Shown here piece after piece: positions 27,160 through 41,359 of a DNA stretch of 42,980 bases. The DNA is from Thermoproteaceae archaeon. GTDB lineage: Archaea > Thermoproteota > Thermoprotei > Thermoproteales > Thermoproteaceae. A program made the translations under genes and the position numbers. The DNA is taken from contig JAJHRB010000003.1 in the NCBI GenBank assembly GCA_020833025.1, forward strand, positions 1-42,980. Direction: 5' to 3'. How positions within the stretch are numbered: the first letter of the stretch is position 1; the number at the start of each line of letters is the position of its first letter. Under the pieces are notes generated by a model. It saw nothing but the letters and a program-made list of their open reading frames with translations. It did no database searches and had not been told where the DNA came from.

Positions 27160-27185
27160 CAATGCATAAATACTGGGTTATATTT
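27160..27185 (+). promoter_or_regulatory. Conserved promoter motif, copy 1 (chelatase ATPase gene)
   Basis: CAATGCATAAATAC begins 32 nt before ATG 27192; overlaps the inverted repeat AAATA-N8-TATTT. Confidence 0.6.
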
Positions 27186-27191
27186 CTGGGC

Positions 27192-29129
27192 ATGTTAATA
27201 CAGCGGCGCGTCCGCCCGGTATACCCGTTCCCGGCAATTGTGGGCATGGAGGACGCGAAGCTCGCGCTGATGGTCGCCGCGGTTAACCCCTCTGTGGGCG
27301 GCGTGCTGCTCCGCGGCGACAAGGGAACCGGGAAGACGACGCTTGTCAGGTCATTCGCCGACGTGCTGCCGGAGGAGGAGGTCGTGGCGGGATGCCCGTT
27401 CAACTGCCACCCGGACGACCCGCGGCTCATGTGCGACGCGTGCTACGAGAGGTGGTCGCGGGGCGAGCCGCTCTCGCGGGCAAAGAGAAAAATGAGAGTG
27501 GTCGACCTCCCGCTCTCAATCACTGTCGACAGGCTGGTGGGCACCCTGGACATAAAGCGGGCTCTTAAGGAGGGAATCCGGGCGCTGCAGCCCGGGCTGC
27601 TTGCAGAGGCCAACCGCAACATACTGTACATCGACGAGGTGAACCTCCTCGACGACTACGTAATTGACGTGCTGCTCGACGCCGCCGCCTACGGCTGGAA
27701 CATAATAGAGAGGGAGGGCGTATCGATCAAGCACCCCGCCCGCTTCATTCTCGTCGGCTCGATGAACCCGGAGGAGGGAGAGCTCAGGCCGCAGCTCCTC
27801 GACAGATTCGGCCTCGTGGTCGACATCGAGGCGCCGAAGGACCCCGAGATAAGGGCGGAGATCGTCAGGCGGGTTGAGGAGTACGAGGCGGATCCCTTCG
27901 CGTTCTACGAGAAGTGGAGGCCGAAGGTAGAGGAGATCAGAGAGAGAATAGTGAGGGCCAGGGAGCTCGTCGGCAAGGTCGTAATCCCCGACGACATGCT
28001 GAGATTCCTCGCCGAGACCGTCGTCAAGATGAACGTGAGGACTAGCAGGGCCGAGATCATTACGGCCAGGGCGGCGAGAGCTATAGCGTCCCTCGACGGC
28101 AGGACCCGCGTGACGGCTGAGGACCTCAAGAAGGCAATGGAGCTGGCGCTGAAGCATAGGATAAAGAGCAGGCCGCTAGAGAGGCCGCCCCCTCCGCCCC
28201 CTCCTCCCCTTAACGTGCTGTCGATGATATGGAGGGGGCACAGGAGGGGGGAGGGCCTGAGCGGTAGGGAGCGCGGGGAGGGCGAGCAGAGGGAGGCGCC
28301 GGAGAGGAGGAGGGGGCAGGGGAGGGGCGACCCCCCGCTGGCCAGCCCGCACAAGCACGACTCGGGCGTGGGCCAGATTCTCGACGTCGAGCGCGCGCTC
28401 GGGCTCGAGAGGAGCAAGACGCCTGAGATGCCGCGGGGGCTGAGGTCGAGGCACTCGTGGAGGAGGGTTGTTGGGGGGCACGTCGGGATTCCGTACATGG
28501 CCGTTCCCGGCACCGGCGACGACGTGGACATAGCCGCGACGATCACGCACGCAGCGCTGAAGAGGCCCGGAGGGCCGCTGGAGATAGCCGACGACGACCT
28601 GATGGTGCGGGTCAGGAGGGCGAGGGCGCCGCGCGTGATGTTAATACTGCTGGACACGAGCGGCAGCATGGGATTCGCCAGGAGGATAGGCGTGGCCAAG
28701 GGCCTCGTGTACAGGCTGGCCGAGGAGGCGTACGTGAAGCGGAGCTACATCGCGCTCGCGGCGTTCCGGGGGGACGGCATTGACTACTTCCACCCGCCGA
28801 CGCGCCACTACGAGAGGATAGTGGAGGAGCTCTCGAGGCTCCCGCACGGCGGCTCGACCCCCCTCTCCGCCGCGCTAAAGTTCGCAATAGACTTCATATC
28901 GAGGCTCAAGCTCAAGCTGAGGGGCGACTACTGGGTCTACCTAATCACCGACGGCAAGGCCAACGTCCCGCTGCGCGATAACATAAGGGAGGAGGTGGCA
29001 GAGCTCGCGGCGGGGCTCTCGAAGCTTGCCAAGCTCGTCGTGTACGACGCAAGTCCCGGCTCGCTCTACCCGGGAGTGTCGTACATAGGCGTGCTCGCGC
29101 AGTACGCCCATTCTGTCGAGAGAGTCTAG
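27192..29129 (+). CDS. Class I chelatase AAA+ subunit (ChlI/ChlD-like) fused to a vWA domain
   Basis: YPFPAIVG, Walker [44 protein letters not shown], poly-Pro linker, MIDAS DTSGS, GGSTPL. Confidence 0.92.
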
Positions 29130-29702: not shown

Positions 29703-29728
29703 CAATGCTTTAATACATTCACGTATTT
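29703..29728 (+). promoter_or_regulatory. Conserved promoter motif, copy 2 (ECF operon)
   Basis: CAATGCTTTAATACA begins 32 nt before ATG 29735; AATAC-N6-GTATT inverted repeat. Confidence 0.65.
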
Positions 29729-29734
29729 AGCAGT

Positions 29735-31213
29735 ATGTCATCAAGAGTCCTCGCCGCGCTGCTGACGCTGCTGCTCGCGCCGCTGGCGTGCGCGAGCGCA
29801 GTCGCGGTGCAGCTGAGAGTCCCCCACGGCGCTGCCGGAGATGTCGTGCACGTGCAGCCCAACGCGACGCTGGGCGGCATTGTCGCCGTGGAGTCGCGGC
29901 AGGACGGGGCCCTGCACTGCCGCGCGAGGCTCGTCTGTCATAACTGCACCGTGTCGCCGGAGGAGTTCACTGCCGTGCTGAGGCTGAGGCACGACGCGAG
30001 GGCAGTTCCCGTCGAGGTCAGGCTCGGCGGCAGTACCGCCGAGCTGCGCGCGGTGGTCGAGTGCAACGGCAGTGCCGCCGTCGCGAGGAAGCTCTTCATT
30101 CCGAGAGCCGAGTGGAGAGTCGGCGTCGAGGTCGTGGCTCCCTCAGACATATTCTGCTCCTTTGACCAGAGGTACGAGCCGTATACATTTATCGTGAGGC
30201 CCAGCTACGTGCCCGAGCTAATCCGGCTCATCACTCAGGAGTCGCGGGCGGGCGGGCATCCTGACCTGATAGGGCTCGTGTGCATAAGGGTCAACAGCAC
30301 GGCAGGGCTCAAGTACACGGCAGTATTGATGTTCGCGAGGCCTGACGGCTCCCCGGCGCCCATCTCGACCCAGTCGCTGCTCCTACACCCCGAGCTGCCG
30401 CAGCAGCACGGGACTGCCGTCGTGCCGGACATCGAGGGCTATCAAGTCGTGCCGCTGTTTTACCCCGGACACGCCGAGCAGGCGGCCGGCAGGTACAGAG
30501 TGACCCTCCTCCTGATACCGCAAGGCGGCTCGAGGCCCGTCTACAACACAACGTTCTACATCACCGTGATATCGACGCGGGGAGAGGCAGTGGCGCTGGC
30601 AGCGTTCTCCGCCTTTGTTGCAATTCCCGCGATGGTCTACCTCCTGTTCCGCTTCGCCAGGAGGGCCACGCTCGGCGACCTGGCCTTCGCGGCGCTCATG
30701 GCCCCGTTGCTCTTCGTGACCGTATACATACCTGGCAGTGTGGCGCGCGGCATCGGAGCGTTTCTCGGCCCGTTCGACTGGCTCGTGTACGGCATTCTCT
30801 TCGACACCGTCGAGTTCGCCCTGCTCGCAATTGCCGTCACGCTCAGGCCGAAGCCCGGCGTGTTGACGGCAATATTCTTCTTCCGCTGGCTGCTAAGCGT
30901 GCTTTACTTCGGCAGGGCCAGCGTGATATCCGCGCTCTGGCTGGCCACGTCGGCGCTCTTTTACGAGGGCGCGCTGTACCTATCCGGCGCCACCCGGGGG
31001 AGGCCGACCTTCGCGCGGGTCGCCGTCCCTCTGGTGCTCGGAGGGGCCTTTGACAGATATGTCGACATGGTCATGTACATGGCCCTGTACAGGCTGTACT
31101 ACGCCGGCTGGTACCTCCTGAGCTACGTGATCGGGACATCTGTCTACTCGGCGCTCGGGGCCCTGCTCGGGAGGCAGTACGCGAGGGTCGTGAGGGGGGC
31201 GCTCCATGAGTGA
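29735..31213 (+). CDS. ECF transporter S component (MptD-like) fused to an N-terminal extracellular domain
   Basis: Signal peptide, about 270 aa soluble region, then multi-TM region with TLGDLAFAAL and RPKPGVLT; directly upstream of ECF A and T genes. Confidence 0.75.
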   Translation: MSSRVLAALLTLLLAPLACASAVAVQLRVPHGAAGDVVHVQPNATLGGIVAVESRQDGALHCRARLVCHNCTVSPEEFTAVLRLRHDARAVPVEVRLGGSTAELRAVVECNGSAAVARKLFIPRAEWRVGVEVVAPSDIFCSFDQRYEPYTFIVRPSYVPELIRLITQESRAGGHPDLIGLVCIRVNSTAGLKYTAVLMFARPDGSPAPISTQSLLLHPELPQQHGTAVVPDIEGYQVVPLFYPGHAEQAAGRYRVTLLLIPQGGSRPVYNTTFYITVISTRGEAVALAAFSAFVAIPAMVYLLFRFARRATLGDLAFAALMAPLLFVTVYIPGSVARGIGAFLGPFDWLVYGILFDTVEFALLAIAVTLRPKPGVLTAIFFFRWLLSVLYFGRASVISALWLATSALFYEGALYLSGATRGRPTFARVAVPLVLGGAFDRYVDMVMYMALYRLYYAGWYLLSYVIGTSVYSALGALLGRQYARVVRGALHE

Positions 31214-32747
31214 GGTGGCCCTCAGGAAGGTCAGGGTGGTCTACCCGGGAGGCGTTGTGGGGCTTGAGGTTGACCGGCTCGAGATCGGGGGCCCTGGCCT
31301 CTTCCTAATTGCCGGGAGGTCGGGCTCGGGGAAGTCCACGCTCGGCAAGGTGATCGCCGGGGTGATACCGAGGGTGGAAAAGGCAGAGGTGGCGGGAGAG
31401 GTCAGGGCGCCGCCCCGGGCGGCCTACCTGCACCAGTCGCCCTACGACCAGGTGTTCTCGACGTATGTTATCGACGAGTTCTTGCTTGCTAAGGAGCTCT
31501 CTGGCTCGCGCCTCGACGTGCTCGAGGCGGCAAAGCTCGTAGGCATTGAGGAGTTGCTGGGCGCGAGGACGTCGGAGCTCTCCGGCGGGCAGCTGCAGAA
31601 GGTCCTCCTCGGCGTCACGCACCTCCTTGACTTCCCGCTCTACGTCCTCGACGAGCCGCTCGCCCACCTGGACCCCAGGAGCGCGAGAGAGCTTCTCGGC
31701 GCCGTGGTCAAGCTGAAGAGGGACAAGACGGTGCTGCTCATAGAGCACAGGCTCAAGGAGGTCTTGCAGATCTCCAGACACATAGACATGATAATTTTGC
31801 TCGACGGCGGCAGGATTGTCGACATAATGAGGCCCGAGGACGTGTCTGCAAAAGCTTGGCTTCTCTCGCGGCTCGGGCTGAGGCTCCCGCTGAGCCTGAA
31901 GTGCTCGCTGAGGCTAGGAGTCCCCGCGGCTGACCCCCTCGACCCCGCGCCTGTAGAGCGGGCCTTGGAGCTCTACAGGCCGCGCGGCAGCGCTGGCGAG
32001 GCGGGCGAGGCCGTGGTGGAGGTGAGGGGGCTGCACTTCTCTTACGGGAGGAGGGTTGTGTTCGCGGAAGCCGACTACGCGGCCAAGTCAAGGGCGGTGT
32101 ACGTGCTGTTCGGCAGGAACGGCAGCGGGAAGTCGACATTCTTGCACATACTCGCCGGGGTGCTCAAGCCAAGGAGAGGTCTCGTGCGCGTCGCGGGGAG
32201 GGCGGCGTACGTGCCCCAGAACCCCGACCTCACGCTAATGCACGAGACCGTGGAGAAGGAGCTCCTCAGCAGGACGAGGGCGTGGGCCAGGTCGAGGGCC
32301 GAGGCCAGAGAGCTCGCCCTCAAGGTGGCCGACGCGCTGGGCGTGAGACAGCTGATGGGCAGGAACCCCCACGCGCTCTCCAGGGGCCAGAGGTTCAGGG
32401 TGGCGCTGGCCGCTGCGCTGTCCTCGCGGCCGAGAGTCCTCTTGCTCGACGAGGTGACCTCGGGGCAGGACGAGGAGAGCATCGAGGCTCTGGGCAGGGC
32501 GCTCCGAGAGTTCGTGAGAGAGGGAAACGTCGCAATTATCGCAACTCACGACGTCTACTTCGCGCTCGACTTAGCGGACCGCGCGTCCGTTATCGCGGGA
32601 GGCCGCATAACGGAGCCGAGGCCTGTCGGCGACGTGCTGACCGACGAGGGGCTCCTCGAGGCCGGCAACCTGGTCGCGCCGCCGCACTTAGAGATCTGTA
32701 AGAGGCGGGGCATGCCGCCGGTCAGGGAGAGGGAGCTATGCGGCTGA
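31206..32747 (+). CDS. ECF transporter dual ATPase (A-A' fusion)
   Basis: Two Walker A motifs (GRSGSGKS, GRNGSGKS), signatures LSGGQ and LSRGQ, Walker B VLDEP and LLDEV. Confidence 0.92.
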   Translation: MSEVALRKVRVVYPGGVVGLEVDRLEIGGPGLFLIAGRSGSGKSTLGKVIAGVIPRVEKAEVAGEVRAPPRAAYLHQSPYDQVFSTYVIDEFLLAKELSGSRLDVLEAAKLVGIEELLGARTSELSGGQLQKVLLGVTHLLDFPLYVLDEPLAHLDPRSARELLGAVVKLKRDKTVLLIEHRLKEVLQISRHIDMIILLDGGRIVDIMRPEDVSAKAWLLSRLGLRLPLSLKCSLRLGVPAADPLDPAPVERALELYRPRGSAGEAGEAVVEVRGLHFSYGRRVVFAEADYAAKSRAVYVLFGRNGSGKSTFLHILAGVLKPRRGLVRVAGRAAYVPQNPDLTLMHETVEKELLSRTRAWARSRAEARELALKVADALGVRQLMGRNPHALSRGQRFRVALAAALSSRPRVLLLDEVTSGQDEESIEALGRALREFVREGNVAIIATHDVYFALDLADRASVIAGGRITEPRPVGDVLTDEGLLEAGNLVAPPHLEICKRRGMPPVRERELCG

Positions 32748-33553
32748 GCTTCACGGCAAAGCTCGCGCTGCTGGCAGCATTCAACGTGCTCGCAATAGCG
32801 CTCGACTACCTTCCCAACTTAATCGCGCTGGCGGCAGCGGCGGCCGCGATATGGGCCGCGGCGAGGCCCTCAGGCGACAGGCTGAAGCTCACGGCGCTCG
32901 TGGTGGTCCCGTCGGTGTGGTCCGTGGTCGTCTTACAGGGGCTATTCTACACGGGATGGCCCAGGACGGTCATCCTCACGATAATTCCGCCTGAGGCGCC
33001 CGTCCTCGGCTGGCTGACGGGCGGCGTCTACCTAACCTACCAGGGAATGCTGTACGGCCTGAAGCAGAGCCTCAGGATAGTCTCGGTAGCGCTCGTCGGC
33101 CTTGCAGTGGTGTGGACGTCGACGGAGAGAGAAATGATGGCAGAGCTCAGGCGCCTGCTGAGGGGCGCGACCCTGTCGGTCGGCGCCACTGTCGCGGCCA
33201 GGTTCTTCGACGTGTTCGCGCAGGACGCAAGGGCTGCGATGATAGCGTACAGGACGGCCGGCTACAGAATACTCGGCGCGAGCACGCTCAGACTGATCGT
33301 GCCCCTGGCAGTGCAGGTTCTGAGGAGGAGCTACGTGGTCACGCTCGCGCTGATAACGCGCGGGTTCAGCCCCGGGGTCAGGATCTCGTCAGGCGCGAGG
33401 CTAGGGGCCCTCGACATCGCGGCTATCGCCGCCTCGCTGGCAGTCGCCGGGACTGTCGGGCTGCTGAAGCTCCTCGCGCTGCTGTACATCATCGACGTGC
33501 TGTACATACCACAGCTGCGCGAGCTTTACTGGTACACAATCAATTATGTTTGA
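32738..33553 (+). CDS. ECF transporter T component
   Basis: Multi-TM protein with the EcfT-type X-R-X coupling region (ARF...AYRTAG; LITRGF). Confidence 0.85.
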   Translation: MRLSFTAKLALLAAFNVLAIALDYLPNLIALAAAAAAIWAAARPSGDRLKLTALVVVPSVWSVVVLQGLFYTGWPRTVILTIIPPEAPVLGWLTGGVYLTYQGMLYGLKQSLRIVSVALVGLAVVWTSTEREMMAELRRLLRGATLSVGATVAARFFDVFAQDARAAMIAYRTAGYRILGASTLRLIVPLAVQVLRRSYVVTLALITRGFSPGVRISSGARLGALDIAAIAASLAVAGTVGLLKLLALLYIIDVLYIPQLRELYWYTINYV

Positions 33554-33583: not shown

Positions 33584-33605
33584 CAATGCTTTAATACAAC
33601 AACGT
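33584..33605 (+). promoter_or_regulatory. Conserved promoter motif, copy 3 (beta-propeller gene)
   Basis: CAATGCTTTAATACAACAACGT matches 29703-29724 at 19 of 22 positions; 32 nt before in-frame GTG 33616. Confidence 0.65.
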
Positions 33606-35325: not shown

Positions 35326-35398
35326 CTCCGTTTTTTCATGCAATACTTAAATTCCGCTTTTCGCGTAATACTTAAATCTTGTAGAATTATTACACCCC

Positions 35399-36409
35399 AT
35401 GGGCTCCGAGGCGTTGCTCAAGCCTCCCGAGCCTCCTCCGGACGAGATTTACAGGATTGTGCTGCACGCGCAGGCCTTTTACGTGCTCGACGCTGCGCTA
35501 GAGCTTGACCTCTTCGAGAGGCTAAAGACTCCCAAGACTGCGGGGGAGCTGGCCGGGGAGCTGGGCACGGACCCCGCCCTGACGGAGACGGTGTGCGACG
35601 CGCTAGCCGCGCTGGGCCTCCTCAAGAAACGCGGCGGCGCCTACGAAAACTCAGCGCTTGCAAGTGCCTACCTCACGGAGGGCTCGCCCTACTGCATGAA
35701 GAACCTCCTGCGCCTGATGAGGTCGTCCCTGAGGGACAGGTGGCCCCGCCTTCTCGACGCGCTGCGCGGGAAGCCCGTCGGGGCGGGCGGGCGCGACCCG
35801 CGGCTCTTCACGCTGGCCGTGGCCGAGAGCGCGCTGGCAGGCGGCCTGCACGGGGTGGTGGAGGTGCTGAGGGAAATTGAGGACCTCAAGAGGGCCAGGA
35901 GGCTCCTCGACCTCGGGGGCGGCCACGGGCTTTACTCCGTCGCCTTGGTCAAGCTGTTCCCCCAGCTGCACGCCTACGTCCTCGACCTCCCCGAGGTTTT
36001 AGAGGTGGCCAGGGAAATTGTGAGCAGATACGGCGGGGACGTGATCGACAGGGTGCACTTCGTGCCCGCCGACTTCACGAGAGACGACATAGGCAGCGGC
36101 TACGACGTCGTTCTCGCCTCGCACTCCCTTTACGGCTACCGGGAGCGGCTCGCGGAAATCTTGAGGAAAGTGCACGCGGCGCTGAACGGCGGGGGCCTCT
36201 TCATATCGAATCACGCGCACAAGTCGCAGGGGCTGAGGGCCTCCCTCTTCGAGCTCCAGATAGCCATGGCCCGCAGGGGATTCTCGCTCTTCAGCGTGGG
36301 GGAGCTAATGTCGCGGCTCAGAGAGGCCGGGTTTGTCGTCGAGGACGTGGCGGTCGTGGGCGGCGCGTGGCCCTCGACGATAGTTGTTGCCAGGAAGCCG
36401 TTACAATAG
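35399..36409 (+). CDS. Class I SAM-dependent methyltransferase (O-methyltransferase family 2, with dimerisation domain)
   Basis: AALELDLFERL, LLDLGGGHGLY, DLPEV, ADF, YDVVLASH. Confidence 0.9.
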   Translation: MGSEALLKPPEPPPDEIYRIVLHAQAFYVLDAALELDLFERLKTPKTAGELAGELGTDPALTETVCDALAALGLLKKRGGAYENSALASAYLTEGSPYCMKNLLRLMRSSLRDRWPRLLDALRGKPVGAGGRDPRLFTLAVAESALAGGLHGVVEVLREIEDLKRARRLLDLGGGHGLYSVALVKLFPQLHAYVLDLPEVLEVAREIVSRYGGDVIDRVHFVPADFTRDDIGSGYDVVLASHSLYGYRERLAEILRKVHAALNGGGLFISNHAHKSQGLRASLFELQIAMARRGFSLFSVGELMSRLREAGFVVEDVAVVGGAWPSTIVVARKPLQ

Positions 36410-37343: not shown

Positions 37344-37457
37344 ACCCGGCATTTCTGGTGCTGCTGTGTTGCGCGTGAGCTGCACCGTATGAAGTCTGCG
37401 CGCGAATTAAAGTGTATGAGGGAGGAAATGTTAAATAATCGGGAACTTTCACACGCA

Positions 37458-38957
37458 ATGCTCGCAATCAAGACGGAGAAGGCGGGAAGGCTTGTCGAGA
37501 CGCTTAAGCTCGCCCTCGAGATCGTCGACAGGATCAGGGCGAGCGGGCCAGCTGAGACCGCCGGGCTCCTCGCGGGGCTCGAGGGAGGCTACGTGGAGCC
37601 GGGGCCCTCGGGCGCGCTGACGCGGGGCAAGGTTGAGGTGCTGCCCACTGGCAGGAACTTCTTTGCGGTCGACCCGACGCAGATCCCGACTCCCGCCGCG
37701 TGGAAAGTCGGCGTGGAGTCGGCGGAGAGGCTCGTAAGGTACTACAGGGAGAGATACGGGAGGTACCCCGAGAGCGTCGGCGAGGTCCTGTGGTCCATTG
37801 ACGCCTACAAGGCAGATGGGGAGCAGCTGTCGCAAATCCTGTGGCTGATGGGCGTCCAGCCAGTCTGGGCCGAGGACGGCAGCGTTAGGGGCGTTGAGGT
37901 AGTGCCGCTGGAGAAGCTGGGCAGACCCAGAATTGACGCTGTGGCCAGAATAAGCGGGATTGTCAGGGACACCCTGCCGAATTACGCCTACCTCATAGAC
38001 GAGGCGGTGTCAAAGGTAATAGCGCTTGACGAGCCTCTGGATATGAACTTCGTCAAGAAGCACTACTTGGAGACGCTTGAGAAGCTAAAGGCCGCCGGCG
38101 TTGACAAGCCAGAGGAGAGGGCCAGGGCCAGGGTGTACGGAGAGCCGCCGGGGGCCTACGGCGCGGGCGTCAACTACGCCGTGGAGGCCTCGGCGTGGAG
38201 GACAGACGAGGACCTCATGAAGGTGTGGCTCCAGTGGGGCAGCTACGCCTACACGCGCGCAATGTATGGAGAGATGAACGTCGAGGCGTTCGTGGCACAG
38301 CTCTCCAAGGTCGATGTAATAAACAGGAACCACATAAGCGACGAGCACGACATATTTGGCTGTTGTTGTTATTTCGCCTTCCATGGCGGCTTTTACAACG
38401 CCGTCAAGGCGCTGACGGGCAGGAGCGACATAGAAATAGTGACCGTCGACACCAGGGACCTCTCGAACATTGAAGTGCGGGGAATGAGGGAGGAGATAGA
38501 GAGAGTGGTCAGGGCCAAGCTCCTGAACCCCGTCTGGATCTCTGAAATGATGAAGCACGGCTATAGAGGGGCCAACGAGATCCAGAGGAAGATACTGCAC
38601 CTTTACGGCTGGTCCGCCACGACGAAGCTCGTCGACAAGTGGGTGTACGACGAGCTCGTGAGAACGTACGTGCTTGACGAGAGGATGCGCAAGTGGTTCA
38701 TGGAGAACAACATCTACGCGCTGGAGGAGATAGTCAGGCGGTTCATAGAGGCGGCGCAGAGGGGGCTGTGGAGGGCAGACGCGGAGACTCTTGAGAGGCT
38801 CAACGAGATCTACAGCGAGATCGAGGCGGTGCTCGAGGCCGACGTGACAGGCGAGGTGCAGGGAGGCTCAATAGACGTGTACACCCACGCCGACGTCCCC
38901 CAGTGGGGCGAGGCCGTTAAGAGGGTGGAGGAGGCCCTCGCCAGGGTGAGGAAATGA
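37458..38957 (+). CDS. CobN/BchH-like chelatase, C-terminal half
   Basis: GGYVEPGPSGALTRG..VLPTGRNF, PRIDAVARISGIVRD, YGAGV, RAKLLNPVWI..MMKHGYRGA. Start ATG 37458. Confidence 0.9.
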   Translation: MLAIKTEKAGRLVETLKLALEIVDRIRASGPAETAGLLAGLEGGYVEPGPSGALTRGKVEVLPTGRNFFAVDPTQIPTPAAWKVGVESAERLVRYYRERYGRYPESVGEVLWSIDAYKADGEQLSQILWLMGVQPVWAEDGSVRGVEVVPLEKLGRPRIDAVARISGIVRDTLPNYAYLIDEAVSKVIALDEPLDMNFVKKHYLETLEKLKAAGVDKPEERARARVYGEPPGAYGAGVNYAVEASAWRTDEDLMKVWLQWGSYAYTRAMYGEMNVEAFVAQLSKVDVINRNHISDEHDIFGCCCYFAFHGGFYNAVKALTGRSDIEIVTVDTRDLSNIEVRGMREEIERVVRAKLLNPVWISEMMKHGYRGANEIQRKILHLYGWSATTKLVDKWVYDELVRTYVLDERMRKWFMENNIYALEEIVRRFIEAAQRGLWRADAETLERLNEIYSEIEAVLEADVTGEVQGGSIDVYTHADVPQWGEAVKRVEEALARVRK

Positions 38958-41359
38958 AGAGGCTGGCATTCATAATCGGGTACGGCGGGGCTGCCCTCCC
39001 GCTTGTGGAGAAAGCCGCGGGCGAGGAGTGTAAGACGCTGGGTCTTGAGTGCGTTGCGGCAACCGACGTGACCGCGCCGCGGTACAGGCAGTTCATCGCG
39101 TCGGCAGACGCCATTTTCATCTACTCGCACCAGCTCTCCGACGACGTCGTCGAGGCAATAAAGGCGGCGAGGGAGCGCGGCGCGGTGGTGATATCTGCCA
39201 CGGACTACTTCTTCGACCTCGTAAACGCGCCGCCGCAGCTCGTGCTCGAGGCCCGGCGCTACTTTATAACAGGCGGCGAGGACAACTTCAGGGCGCTGGT
39301 CAGGCTCCTGGCAAGAGCCCTCGGCATGAACGTGGACGTCCCGCCGCTGAGGGAGGTCCCGTGGATGGGCGTCTACCACCCGAGGCTCGGCACGTTCACG
39401 TCGCTGGAGGAGTACCTCAGGGTTTACGACATACAGAGCAGGGAGGGAGTCGTCGGCGTGCTGTTCTACAGGACGTACTGGCTCTACGGCAACCTGGCCC
39501 ACGTGAACGCCCTGATAGAGGCGCTCGAGGCCGAGAACCTGGCCGTCGTGCCTGTGTTCACGTACGGCTTCCGCGACGAGAGTGTCGGCGCGCCCTCGGC
39601 GGAGGACGCCATCAGAGAGTTCTTCTTCTACAGGGGCGAGAGAGTAGTCAACGCCGTGATAAACCTCCTCTTCTTCTTCCTGCTGGACAGGGGCAAGTGG
39701 CACAGGAGGGCTGACAGGTTCAAGGTCGCCGAGACCGGCATCGCGCTGCTAAAGAGGCTGAACGTCCCGGTGATAACGCCAATAACGTGCTTCTATAGGT
39801 CCGTCGACGAGTGGGCTAAGGACCCGCAGGGCGTTGACTATCTGACGCAAGTTTACAGCGTGATAATGCCCGAGGTGGACGGCCTGATAGAGCCCGTCTT
39901 TTACGCGGGCGCCAGGCCCGCGCCGGACGGCACCAAGAGGTACGAGCCGTTCCTGGAGCACGCCAGGTACCTGGCCAGGAGGGTGAAGAGGTGGATCAAG
40001 ATGGCGAGGAAGCCCCCGTCGCAGAGAAAGATTGCAATCGTCCTGATAAACCCGCCGTGCAAGAACCTGCAGGCGAACATAGGCGTCGGCCTCGGCCTGG
40101 ACGTGCCGGAGTCCATCGCCAGGCTGCTCCACAGGCTCGCCGAGCTCGGCTACGACGTCGGCCCGAGGGATGCCCTGCTGAAGACGGGGCAGGAGCTCAT
40201 CAAGATGTTCCTAGCGAGAAAGGCCTACAGCGACTTCCGCTTCGCGAGCGTTGAGGACATAGTGATGAGCGGCGGCGCCGCCGCCTTCGTGGATTACGAC
40301 ACGTACATCAAGTGGTTCGAGGAGCTCCCCGAGGAGGCCCGCAGGAGGCTCGAGAGAGACTGGGGCCACCCGCGCGACGTCCTTGAGGGCCGCGCGCCGA
40401 AAGAGTTCGCCGGCATGGTGTACGAGGGGAAGTTCGTCGTGCCCGGCCTTCTATTCGGCAACGTCTTCATCACGCCCCAGCCTAAGTTCGGCTGCGCGGG
40501 CCCCGGCTGCGACGGCAGGATCTGCAGGATACTGCACGATCCCAACATTACGCCGCCCCACCAGTGGCTCGCCGTCTACAGGTGGATAACGAGAGTGTTC
40601 GGCGCGGACGTGGTAATACACTTCGGCACCCACGGGTACCTTGAGTTCAGGCCGGGCAAGGGGGTCGGGCTCGCGCCGTGGGACTGGCCGGAGATCTCGA
40701 TTGACGACGTCCCGCACCTGTACGTCTACGTCGTCTCGAACCCGATGGAGGGGGTGATGGCGAAGAGGAGGTCCTACGCGGTGCTAGTGGACCACATGTA
40801 CCCGCCGATGGCGCTGGCAGAGGGCCTCGAGGAGCTCGAGAGGCTTGTCAACGACTACGCCAAGTACAAGGCCCTGGGCGAGTTTGAGAAGGCAAAGATT
40901 GTGTATGAGGAAATCGTAAAGAAAGCGAAGGATAATCACGTCAGGATACCCGAAGGCGGAGACCCCGAGAAGGTCGTGGAGGAGGTCCACCGTTACATCG
41001 ACATGGTGAAGGGCACGCAGATAAACCTCGGGCTTCACGTCTTCGGCAGCCCGCCGGAGGACCCCGAGAGGCTGGCGCAGTACGCCGCGACGATACTGGC
41101 CTACGACACGGCGAGGGCCCCCTCGATTCGGAGGGTTCTTGCGGAGTACCTGGGCCTCGACTACGATGAGATGAGGAGGAGGCCTCTCGAGGTGAATAAG
41201 CTCGGCATGACAAACGCCGAGACCCTGAACCTGCTGTACAAGGCTGCCGTCGAGATAATCAAACAGCTCGTCTCAGCCCCGCGCTCGGAGGAGGCGATAC
41301 TTAGCGTCGCGGAGTCTGTTCTGCGGAAGCTCTTTGGCGCCAGAACCGCGCCCCTATGA
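38954..41359 (+). CDS. CobN/BchH-like chelatase, N-terminal half
   Basis: VIMPEVDGLIEP, KIAIVLINPP, GNVFITPQP, PPHQWLAVY, HFGTHGYLEFRPGK, NPMEGVMAKRRS, GLHVFG. Confidence 0.92.
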   Translation: MKRLAFIIGYGGAALPLVEKAAGEECKTLGLECVAATDVTAPRYRQFIASADAIFIYSHQLSDDVVEAIKAARERGAVVISATDYFFDLVNAPPQLVLEARRYFITGGEDNFRALVRLLARALGMNVDVPPLREVPWMGVYHPRLGTFTSLEEYLRVYDIQSREGVVGVLFYRTYWLYGNLAHVNALIEALEAENLAVVPVFTYGFRDESVGAPSAEDAIREFFFYRGERVVNAVINLLFFFLLDRGKWHRRADRFKVAETGIALLKRLNVPVITPITCFYRSVDEWAKDPQGVDYLTQVYSVIMPEVDGLIEPVFYAGARPAPDGTKRYEPFLEHARYLARRVKRWIKMARKPPSQRKIAIVLINPPCKNLQANIGVGLGLDVPESIARLLHRLAELGYDVGPRDALLKTGQELIKMFLARKAYSDFRFASVEDIVMSGGAAAFVDYDTYIKWFEELPEEARRRLERDWGHPRDVLEGRAPKEFAGMVYEGKFVVPGLLFGNVFITPQPKFGCAGPGCDGRICRILHDPNITPPHQWLAVYRWITRVFGADVVIHFGTHGYLEFRPGKGVGLAPWDWPEISIDDVPHLYVYVVSNPMEGVMAKRRSYAVLVDHMYPPMALAEGLEELERLVNDYAKYKALGEFEKAKIVYEEIVKKAKDNHVRIPEGGDPEKVVEEVHRYIDMVKGTQINLGLHVFGSPPEDPERLAQYAATILAYDTARAPSIRRVLAEYLGLDYDEMRRRPLEVNKLGMTNAETLNLLYKAAVEIIKQLVSAPRSEEAILSVAESVLRKLFGARTAPL

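Follow-up and report, generated by a model that had tools for sequence, protein, structure and literature searches.

A CobN/ChlH-type large subunit encoded as two pieces in reverse gene order in Pyrobaculum

CobN, ChlH and HmuS are regarded in the literature as single giant chains. A 42,980-nucleotide (nt) stretch of DNA from a Thermoproteaceae archaeon (contig JAJHRB010000003.1 of assembly GCA_020833025.1), referred to here as the window and representing an entire contig of a 126-contig metagenome bin, carries two overlapping open reading frames (ORFs) that resemble the C-terminal and the N-terminal part of such a protein, in that order. An earlier note on this DNA had read the arrangement as a permuted heterodimeric chelatase, possibly reached through a circular-permutation intermediate. 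The locus raises the question of whether its gene order is genuine and, if so, whether a protein or only a pair of genes has been rearranged. We find that the two ORFs are complementary halves of one CobN/ChlH large subunit, in reverse order, and consider it probable that they represent an old two-chain class I chelatase subunit whose genes were swapped in one Pyrobaculum subclade. The genes, referred to below as the C piece and the N piece, and their active-site motifs are located as follows.

37458 to 38957, forward strand: C piece gene of the split CobN-like subunit, 499 amino acids (aa); the longest frame, from 37389, encodes 522 aa
38954 to 41359, forward strand: N piece gene (head, neck, domains III-IV), 801 aa
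40619 to 40636, forward strand: HFGTHG active-site motif of domain III, N piece residues 556-561
38343 to 38369, forward strand: EHD followed by CCC in domain V, C piece residues 296-304 of the 499-aa form

The complementarity and the reversed order are evident because the matches of the two ORFs to two family models abut in swapped order. PF02514 (1090 positions) is matched by the C piece at profile positions 676-1090 (E = 4e-176) and by the N piece at positions 2-663 (E = 1.4e-174), with scores for the two pieces of 588 and 583 bits against a cut-off of 24.5, so that they jointly span positions 2-1090. The CobN equivalog NF004646 (1277 positions), the top NCBIfam model for both pieces, is covered at positions 49-778 by the N piece and 797-1275 by the C piece; the scores of 582 and 643 bits fall under its 1468-bit whole-protein cut-off because the protein is split. 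The C piece corresponds to the last third of CobN/ChlH and the N piece to the first two thirds, and 499-522 aa plus 801 aa amount to a full CobN length. The features listed in the earlier note, namely two ORFs with reversed CobN halves, an ATGA overlap, the full summed length and the motifs PGPSG..PTGRNF and LLNPVWI (C piece) and HFGTHG, AKRRS and GLHVFG (N piece), are all present, and we agree that a frameshift is unable to give the C-then-N order.

The cleft histidines expected of the CobN/ChlH family are present in HFGTHG (domain III) and EHD (domain V). According to PMC12583661, HFGTHG is a conserved motif throughout the chelatase superfamily, and its His lies opposite the domain V His on the other side of the cleft. 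H556, G558, T559, H560 and G561 of the N piece are invariant in an alignment of 18 N pieces. In the C piece, E296, D298, C302 and C303 are invariant and H297 and C304 nearly so; EHD aligns with the EHD of M. tuberculosis CobN, and the EHD..HGG residues are invariant or nearly so. The two ORFs are set apart by a stop codon and lie in different frames, so that the six domains do not lie on a single 120-150 kDa polypeptide here and the locus does not encode a circularly permuted single chain.

We then asked how far this split extends. A census of orthologous loci, which drew on genome and metagenome collections and may count some loci in both, comprised 64 N-then-C loci, 19 fused N-C loci, four unlinked loci and four C-then-N loci plus L104. 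Pieces of ~500 aa corresponding to the C piece were found in Archaeoglobus, Thermococcus, Desulfurococcaceae, Ignisphaera, Nezhaarchaeales and others, the C-piece search having returned 1247 proteins at E 1e-20 or better within a length band of 287-914 aa. The split form is widespread among archaea, including members of Pyrobaculum, Archaeoglobi, Desulfurococcales, Methanomethylicia and other groups, and the fission is an old one. In genomes G007 and G016 the gene order is N piece, C piece, ChlI/ChlD-like AAA+/VWA gene, full-length CobN paralogue, and G026 and G028 likewise have N then C. The break point is identical across split loci, and the corresponding stretch of fused members is a variable linker. 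Moreover, a split C piece was always accompanied by a split N piece (9/9 genomes). Complementary halves, a fixed break point, co-occurrence and the purifying selection described below characterize the two ORFs as a conserved fission gene pair; its presence in 3 of the 17 other Pyrobaculum genomes searched makes it an accessory trait.

On a FastTree phylogeny, the fused/split character required at least six changes, with fused forms nested among split ones and outgroups that are all fused. A single early fission with several later re-fusions would account for this pattern, re-fusion being easy where stop and start overlap; repeated fission is a possible alternative history. We found no account of a split CobN in the searchable open-access literature, including an archaeal fusion/fission survey (PMC11237513). 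A two-chain CobN is already visible in public annotations, each piece being merely named CobN.

The census also contained some unusual loci. One Thermoprotei bin (G026) holds two N-C-ChlID units with identical match scores, at C3:90062-93905 and 197524-201367 (L022 and L023), ~100 kb apart on the same contig and in inverted orientation. At L070:5923-7640 the C piece is spread over two overlapping frames, as is the N piece at L118:196-2588; these broken pieces could reflect further fission, decay or sequencing error.

Among census loci, the C-then-N order is restricted to the window, L101, L104, L103 and genome G006, which belong to one Pyrobaculum subclade. A Pyrobaculum clade with 99-100% support was recovered in trees of either piece and of their concatenation (the latter a quick tree); it consists of the window with L101 and L104 (C-then-N), G006 with L103 (C-then-N), and G007 with G016 (N-then-C). 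Forcing the C-then-N rows together cost 3.3 log-likelihood units (approximately unbiased test, p-AU 0.35), and a single origin of this order is compatible with, and not rejected by, the data. Because the same split point occurs N-then-C in more than 60 related loci, and in unlinked halves elsewhere, fission came first and the reversal later, as a shuffle of two independent genes in one Pyrobaculum subclade. Genes that were already separate changed order, and no circular-permutation step is needed. The genes might have traded places when the pair was duplicated in tandem and the outer copies were lost, or when one gene was transposed; a tblastn search of the window revealed neither a leftover N piece upstream nor a leftover C piece downstream.

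Next, we evaluated constraint on the two pieces and their possible association. Both are under purifying selection, with ratios of nonsynonymous to synonymous substitution rates (dN/dS) between the window and L101 of 0.10 for the C piece and 0.11 for the N piece. Complex prediction with N residues 305-801 and C residues 1-499 yielded a score of 0.94, compared with 0.00 for the best of three controls; solved complexes reached this mark in 58 of 80 cases and mismatched pairs in 2 of 110, and the high score may only mirror likeness to solved single-chain CobN and ChlH structures. The runs share at least 94% of contacts, with a partner pLDDT (predicted local distance difference test score) of at least 93, and the predicted interface of ~460 contacts takes in nearly all of C residues 1-72. 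In the prediction, the two chains make up a single CobN-like body whose active-site cleft is bordered by both of them. In the domain layout described in the HmuS structure paper (PMC12583661), domains III-IV make up one half of the body and V-VI the other, with the cleft between and one His per side; each gene therefore encodes one cleft face. The crystallised C-terminal fragments 6ys9, 5ewu and 9fpc begin ~60-75 residues past the start of the C piece, which therefore bears an extra N-terminal helical stretch.

Together, these data suggest an enzyme of the following build. The N piece (801 aa) would provide the head, the neck and the first body half with the HFGTHG His, while the C piece (~499 aa) would contribute ~70 residues of helices packing into the N piece as well as domains V-VI with the EHD His. 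The two would associate non-covalently, with the active-site cleft between the chains, to give the naturally split large subunit of a class I (ATP-dependent, CobN/ChlH-type) tetrapyrrole chelatase, acting in the direction of either chelation or de-chelation. Its most likely partner would be the ChlI/ChlD-like AAA+/VWA protein encoded at 27192-29129. The heterodimer proposed in the earlier note fits the co-occurrence, the purifying selection and the strong complex prediction.

Several other explanations have to be weighed against this account. The window comes from a 126-contig metagenome bin, and its contig might have brought together two fragments of an ordinary cobN in a false order. However, independently assembled contigs of four hot-spring runs from two studies (X1, X2 and X4 of study P1, X3 of study P2) span the junction at 38954 as well as the end at 41359, with long flanking sequence; contigs rather than raw reads were compared, so that depth is uninformative, and the X4 contig stems from a variant strain with 180 differences from the window. 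The same order is found on the independent metagenome contigs L101, L104 and L103 and in G006, of which the first two share 85-90% identity with the window and the other two 52-71%; G006 is a 99%-complete genome of the same genus in 10 contigs. The order is thereby seen in three diverged lineages. The gene order is genuine, and we attach practically no weight to a misassembly, one of two outcomes that the earlier note had named as fatal to its proposal; the other, that the halves belong to different CobN clades and form no complex, is contradicted by their falling into one clade, and its suggestion to look for the same order in relatives is answered by these four loci. It is likewise scarcely credible that the ORFs are decaying, non-functional remnants of neighboring tandem cobN copies, with the 3' end of the first preserved beside the 5' end of the second. 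The genome does contain other CobN copies, partial ones included, but both frames are intact and start and end at the family-wide split point, dN/dS is ~0.1 in both pieces, the active-site motifs are invariant, and both halves lie in the same orthologue clade, apart from the full-length paralogue (29-42% identical).

A true circular permutation would imply descent from a permuted single-chain CobN, or frameshifting at the ATGA that yields one. While the C-then-N order with its 4-nt overlap would agree with such an origin, and tandem duplication with end-trimming is the textbook route to it, no fused C-N frame occurs in ~150 loci and all 19 fused orthologues read N-C. The two sister Pyrobaculum genomes and 60 other loci have this split with N ahead of C, and the surroundings of the overlap differ between the window and G006, with no common slippery-looking motif discernible by eye. 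We consider this origin very unlikely, and the permuted protein or permutation intermediate of the earlier note is not supported. Alternatively, the pieces might be real but act separately, the C piece for example as a free tetrapyrrole-binding protein, which would render the gene order meaningless for a complex. In keeping with this, the halves are unlinked in G036, G037, G040, L046 and L141, so that coupling is not obligatory, and the C-terminal ChlH and CobN fragments cited above were stable enough alone for crystals, indicating that a C piece can fold by itself. Separate action is nonetheless improbable given the strict co-occurrence of the halves, ATGA coupling in both gene orders, the presence of only one cleft face per piece, and the very large predicted interface involving nearly all of the first 70 C-piece residues. 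The unlinked halves and the self-sufficient fragments also count against the two-chain account as such, as do two further points: the role of archaeal CobN homologues is described as openly unassigned (PMC12583661), and the trees leave the three Pyrobaculum groups as a trichotomy, making one swap, two swaps, or a swap and its reversal indistinguishable. We favor the account of an old two-chain subunit with swapped genes, and the locus is a real but modest gene-order variant, the swap alone being a minor rearrangement.

The junction and the region upstream of the pair contain the following signals.

38954 to 38957, forward strand: ATGA stop/start overlap from C piece to N piece, read from the sequence
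38945 to 38951, forward strand: GGTGAGG, Shine-Dalgarno-like, 3 nt before the N-piece ATG; a putative ribosome-binding site, judged from the sequence
37431 to 37438, forward strand: TTAAATAA, TATA-box-like, 27 nt upstream of ATG 37458

The halves are linked by an ATGA-type overlap in relatives of either order, namely G006 (C-then-N), G007 and G016 (N-then-C), and the C-N-ChlID unit of G006 has one at each of its two junctions. Translational coupling through the ATGA overlap is present in the swapped order too. ATG 37458, the start given in the earlier note, is the likely start of the C piece, giving 499 aa, because homologues align to the 522-aa frame only from residue 23-35 onward and because TTAAATAA lies 27 nt before this ATG. 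The position of this TATA-like box suggests a leaderless start of the two-gene unit, and in G006 and G016 similar AT-rich boxes precede the unit's first gene, at about -25 to -27. In the variant strain of run X4, the A of ATG 37458 is substituted and 11 bases are inserted immediately downstream of it (37458-37461); the C-piece start may differ between strains, or the alignment may be unreliable there.

Beyond the canonical active-site residues, two cysteine motifs, one on each face of the cleft, distinguish the orthologue clade.

40493 to 40525, forward strand: C514-x4-C519-x4-C524 in Loop I of the N piece, a 5-residue insertion ~30 residues before HFGTHG
38361 to 38369, forward strand: CCC four residues after EHD in the C piece; clade form CC(C/G/S)

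C514, C519 and C524 are invariant in 18/18 aligned N pieces, and CxxxxCxxxxC is present in 102/102 orthologues compared with 1/41 other CobN-like proteins; the Cys-bearing Loop I insertion occurs throughout the clade, in split and fused members alike. CCC is found in 100/118 orthologues, sampled orthologues without it reading CCG or CCS, and in 0/49 other CobN-like proteins. The predicted interface includes N residues 517-524 and 526-531 and C residues 294-297, 301 and 303. A metal or iron-sulfur (Fe-S) site might bridge both chains; an Fe-S cluster of a BchH is a precedent (Sirijovski 2007, cited in PMC7689651). The proposed site would comprise the three Loop I cysteines of the N piece and two or three cysteines beside the catalytic His of the C piece. 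By extension, and as a tentative and rather doubtful proposal, the archaeal clade (mostly split, with fused members nested within it) might form a functionally distinct group of class I chelatases or de-chelatases with a thiolate-rich metal or Fe-S cleft site built from both chains. If true, the two-chain build could allow the cleft to open for loading, and this would offer a first way into the so far unexplained CobN homologues of anaerobic archaea. As a lead to the role of archaeal CobN, a question stated in PMC12583661, the cleft cysteines may matter more than the gene order.

Further genes of the locus lie upstream of the pair.

27192 to 29129, forward strand: ChlI/ChlD-like AAA+ and VWA protein (longest frame from 27072; Pfam Mg_chelatase, AAA_5, AAA_lid_2 and VWA_2)
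29735 to 33553, forward strand: transporter unit of three genes, a 492-aa protein, a CbiO-like double ABC ATPase and CbiQ (Pfam)
29735 to 31213, forward strand: the 492-aa protein, without a Pfam match, leading the CbiO/CbiQ unit

The ChlID-like gene of the window lineage is found ~8 kb upstream of the pair, before the transporter unit; its orthologue directly follows the CobN pieces in G006, G007, G016, G026, G028, L105 and L107. The window contains an AAA+/VWA motor gene as is typical of the CobN/ChlH family, and its product is the likely motor partner of the split CobN. The transporter genes adjoin the split CobN in G006, L101 and L102 and the unlinked N piece in G036, and the 492-aa protein is conserved together with the CbiO/CbiQ unit in G006, L103 and G036. 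A WD40/PD40 propeller gene is also nearby, and this set of neighbors travels with the split CobN in G006, L101, L102 and G036. The nearby CbiO/CbiQ-type transporter suggests cobalt or nickel as the metal.

A promoter-like motif, CAATGCWTWAATAC, occurs at 27160-27173, 29703-29716, 33584-33597 and 35341-35354 (three exact copies and one with 2 mismatches, against a chance expectation of 0.11 matches). Of the exact copies, two precede a start by 32 nt: one precedes ATG 27192, which is in frame with the longer AAA+/VWA frame, and the other 29735, the listed start of the 492-aa ORF. This suggests a co-regulated chelatase/transporter locus. Upstream of the C piece there is no match within 2 mismatches, the best alignment by eye, at 37426, having about six. 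An O-methyltransferase gene (Methyltransf_2 plus dimerisation domain, 35399-36409) sits between the WD40 gene and a Gate-family gene; contigs L101 and L102 (89%-related) lack it at this position, which makes it a recent insertion or deletion. Elsewhere, the source genome (G000) encodes a full-length CobN paralogue (C10:12999-16166, 1257-aa frame), a copy cut by the contig end (C10:16793-17407) and a short fragment with a stop (C9:16423-16719). In relatives, the full-length paralogue shares an operon with the split pair.

With respect to its wider meaning, a natural two-chain form that is widespread in archaea identifies a tolerated break point just before domain V. This break point could aid the expression and dissection of these difficult enzymes, with the active site rebuilt from two pieces. 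The reversed order itself carries little weight: once split, the halves shuffle, unlink or re-fuse like ordinary subunit genes.

Lastly, we compared the split subunit with known systems. By sequence, the solved relatives CobN, ChlH and HmuS are about equally distant from the C piece. The best match is M. tuberculosis CobN (7c6o, CobNST; residues 794-1230, E = 1e-99), which shares PF02514, the PTGRNF, EHD and HGG motifs of the C piece, HFGTHG of the N piece, and an AAA+/VWA gene in the locus. CobN is described as a single large monomeric protein of 120-150 kDa (PMC7689651), whereas two chains are encoded here; moreover, the partner is ChlI/ChlD-like instead of CobS/CobT, M. tuberculosis CobN lacks the extra cleft cysteines borne by the archaeal clade, and no cobW, cobG or other aerobic-pathway genes were present among the window ORFs scanned. 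Synechocystis ChlH (4zhj) is colinear and follows the same six-domain logic, the N piece aligning to residues 250-859 and the C piece to 908-1348 (E = 1e-86 for the C piece). It differs in being a single chain, the organism here is a non-phototrophic archaeon, and Loop I here has the 5-residue Cys-bearing insertion. The HmuS/BtuS heme de-chelatase of Bacteroidota (9d26) is CobN-like, with the same body architecture and conserved cross-cleft His residues, and shows that the family can also remove metals (PMC12583661). Its match is weaker (E = 8e-62 and 8e-50, the former for the C piece), and neither a Met-rich insert or membrane anchors nor an hmu operon was seen here. Further close counterparts are the split N-then-C orthologues of other archaea, such as Pyrobaculum neutrophilum and Archaeoglobus veneficus, labeled in RefSeq only as 'cobaltochelatase subunit CobN'. 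With identities of 57-70% for the C piece and 48-59% for the N piece, they share the split point, the Cys motifs and an adjacent AAA+/VWA gene. Unlike in these orthologues, the gene order is reversed in the window and the AAA+/VWA gene has also moved ~8 kb upstream.

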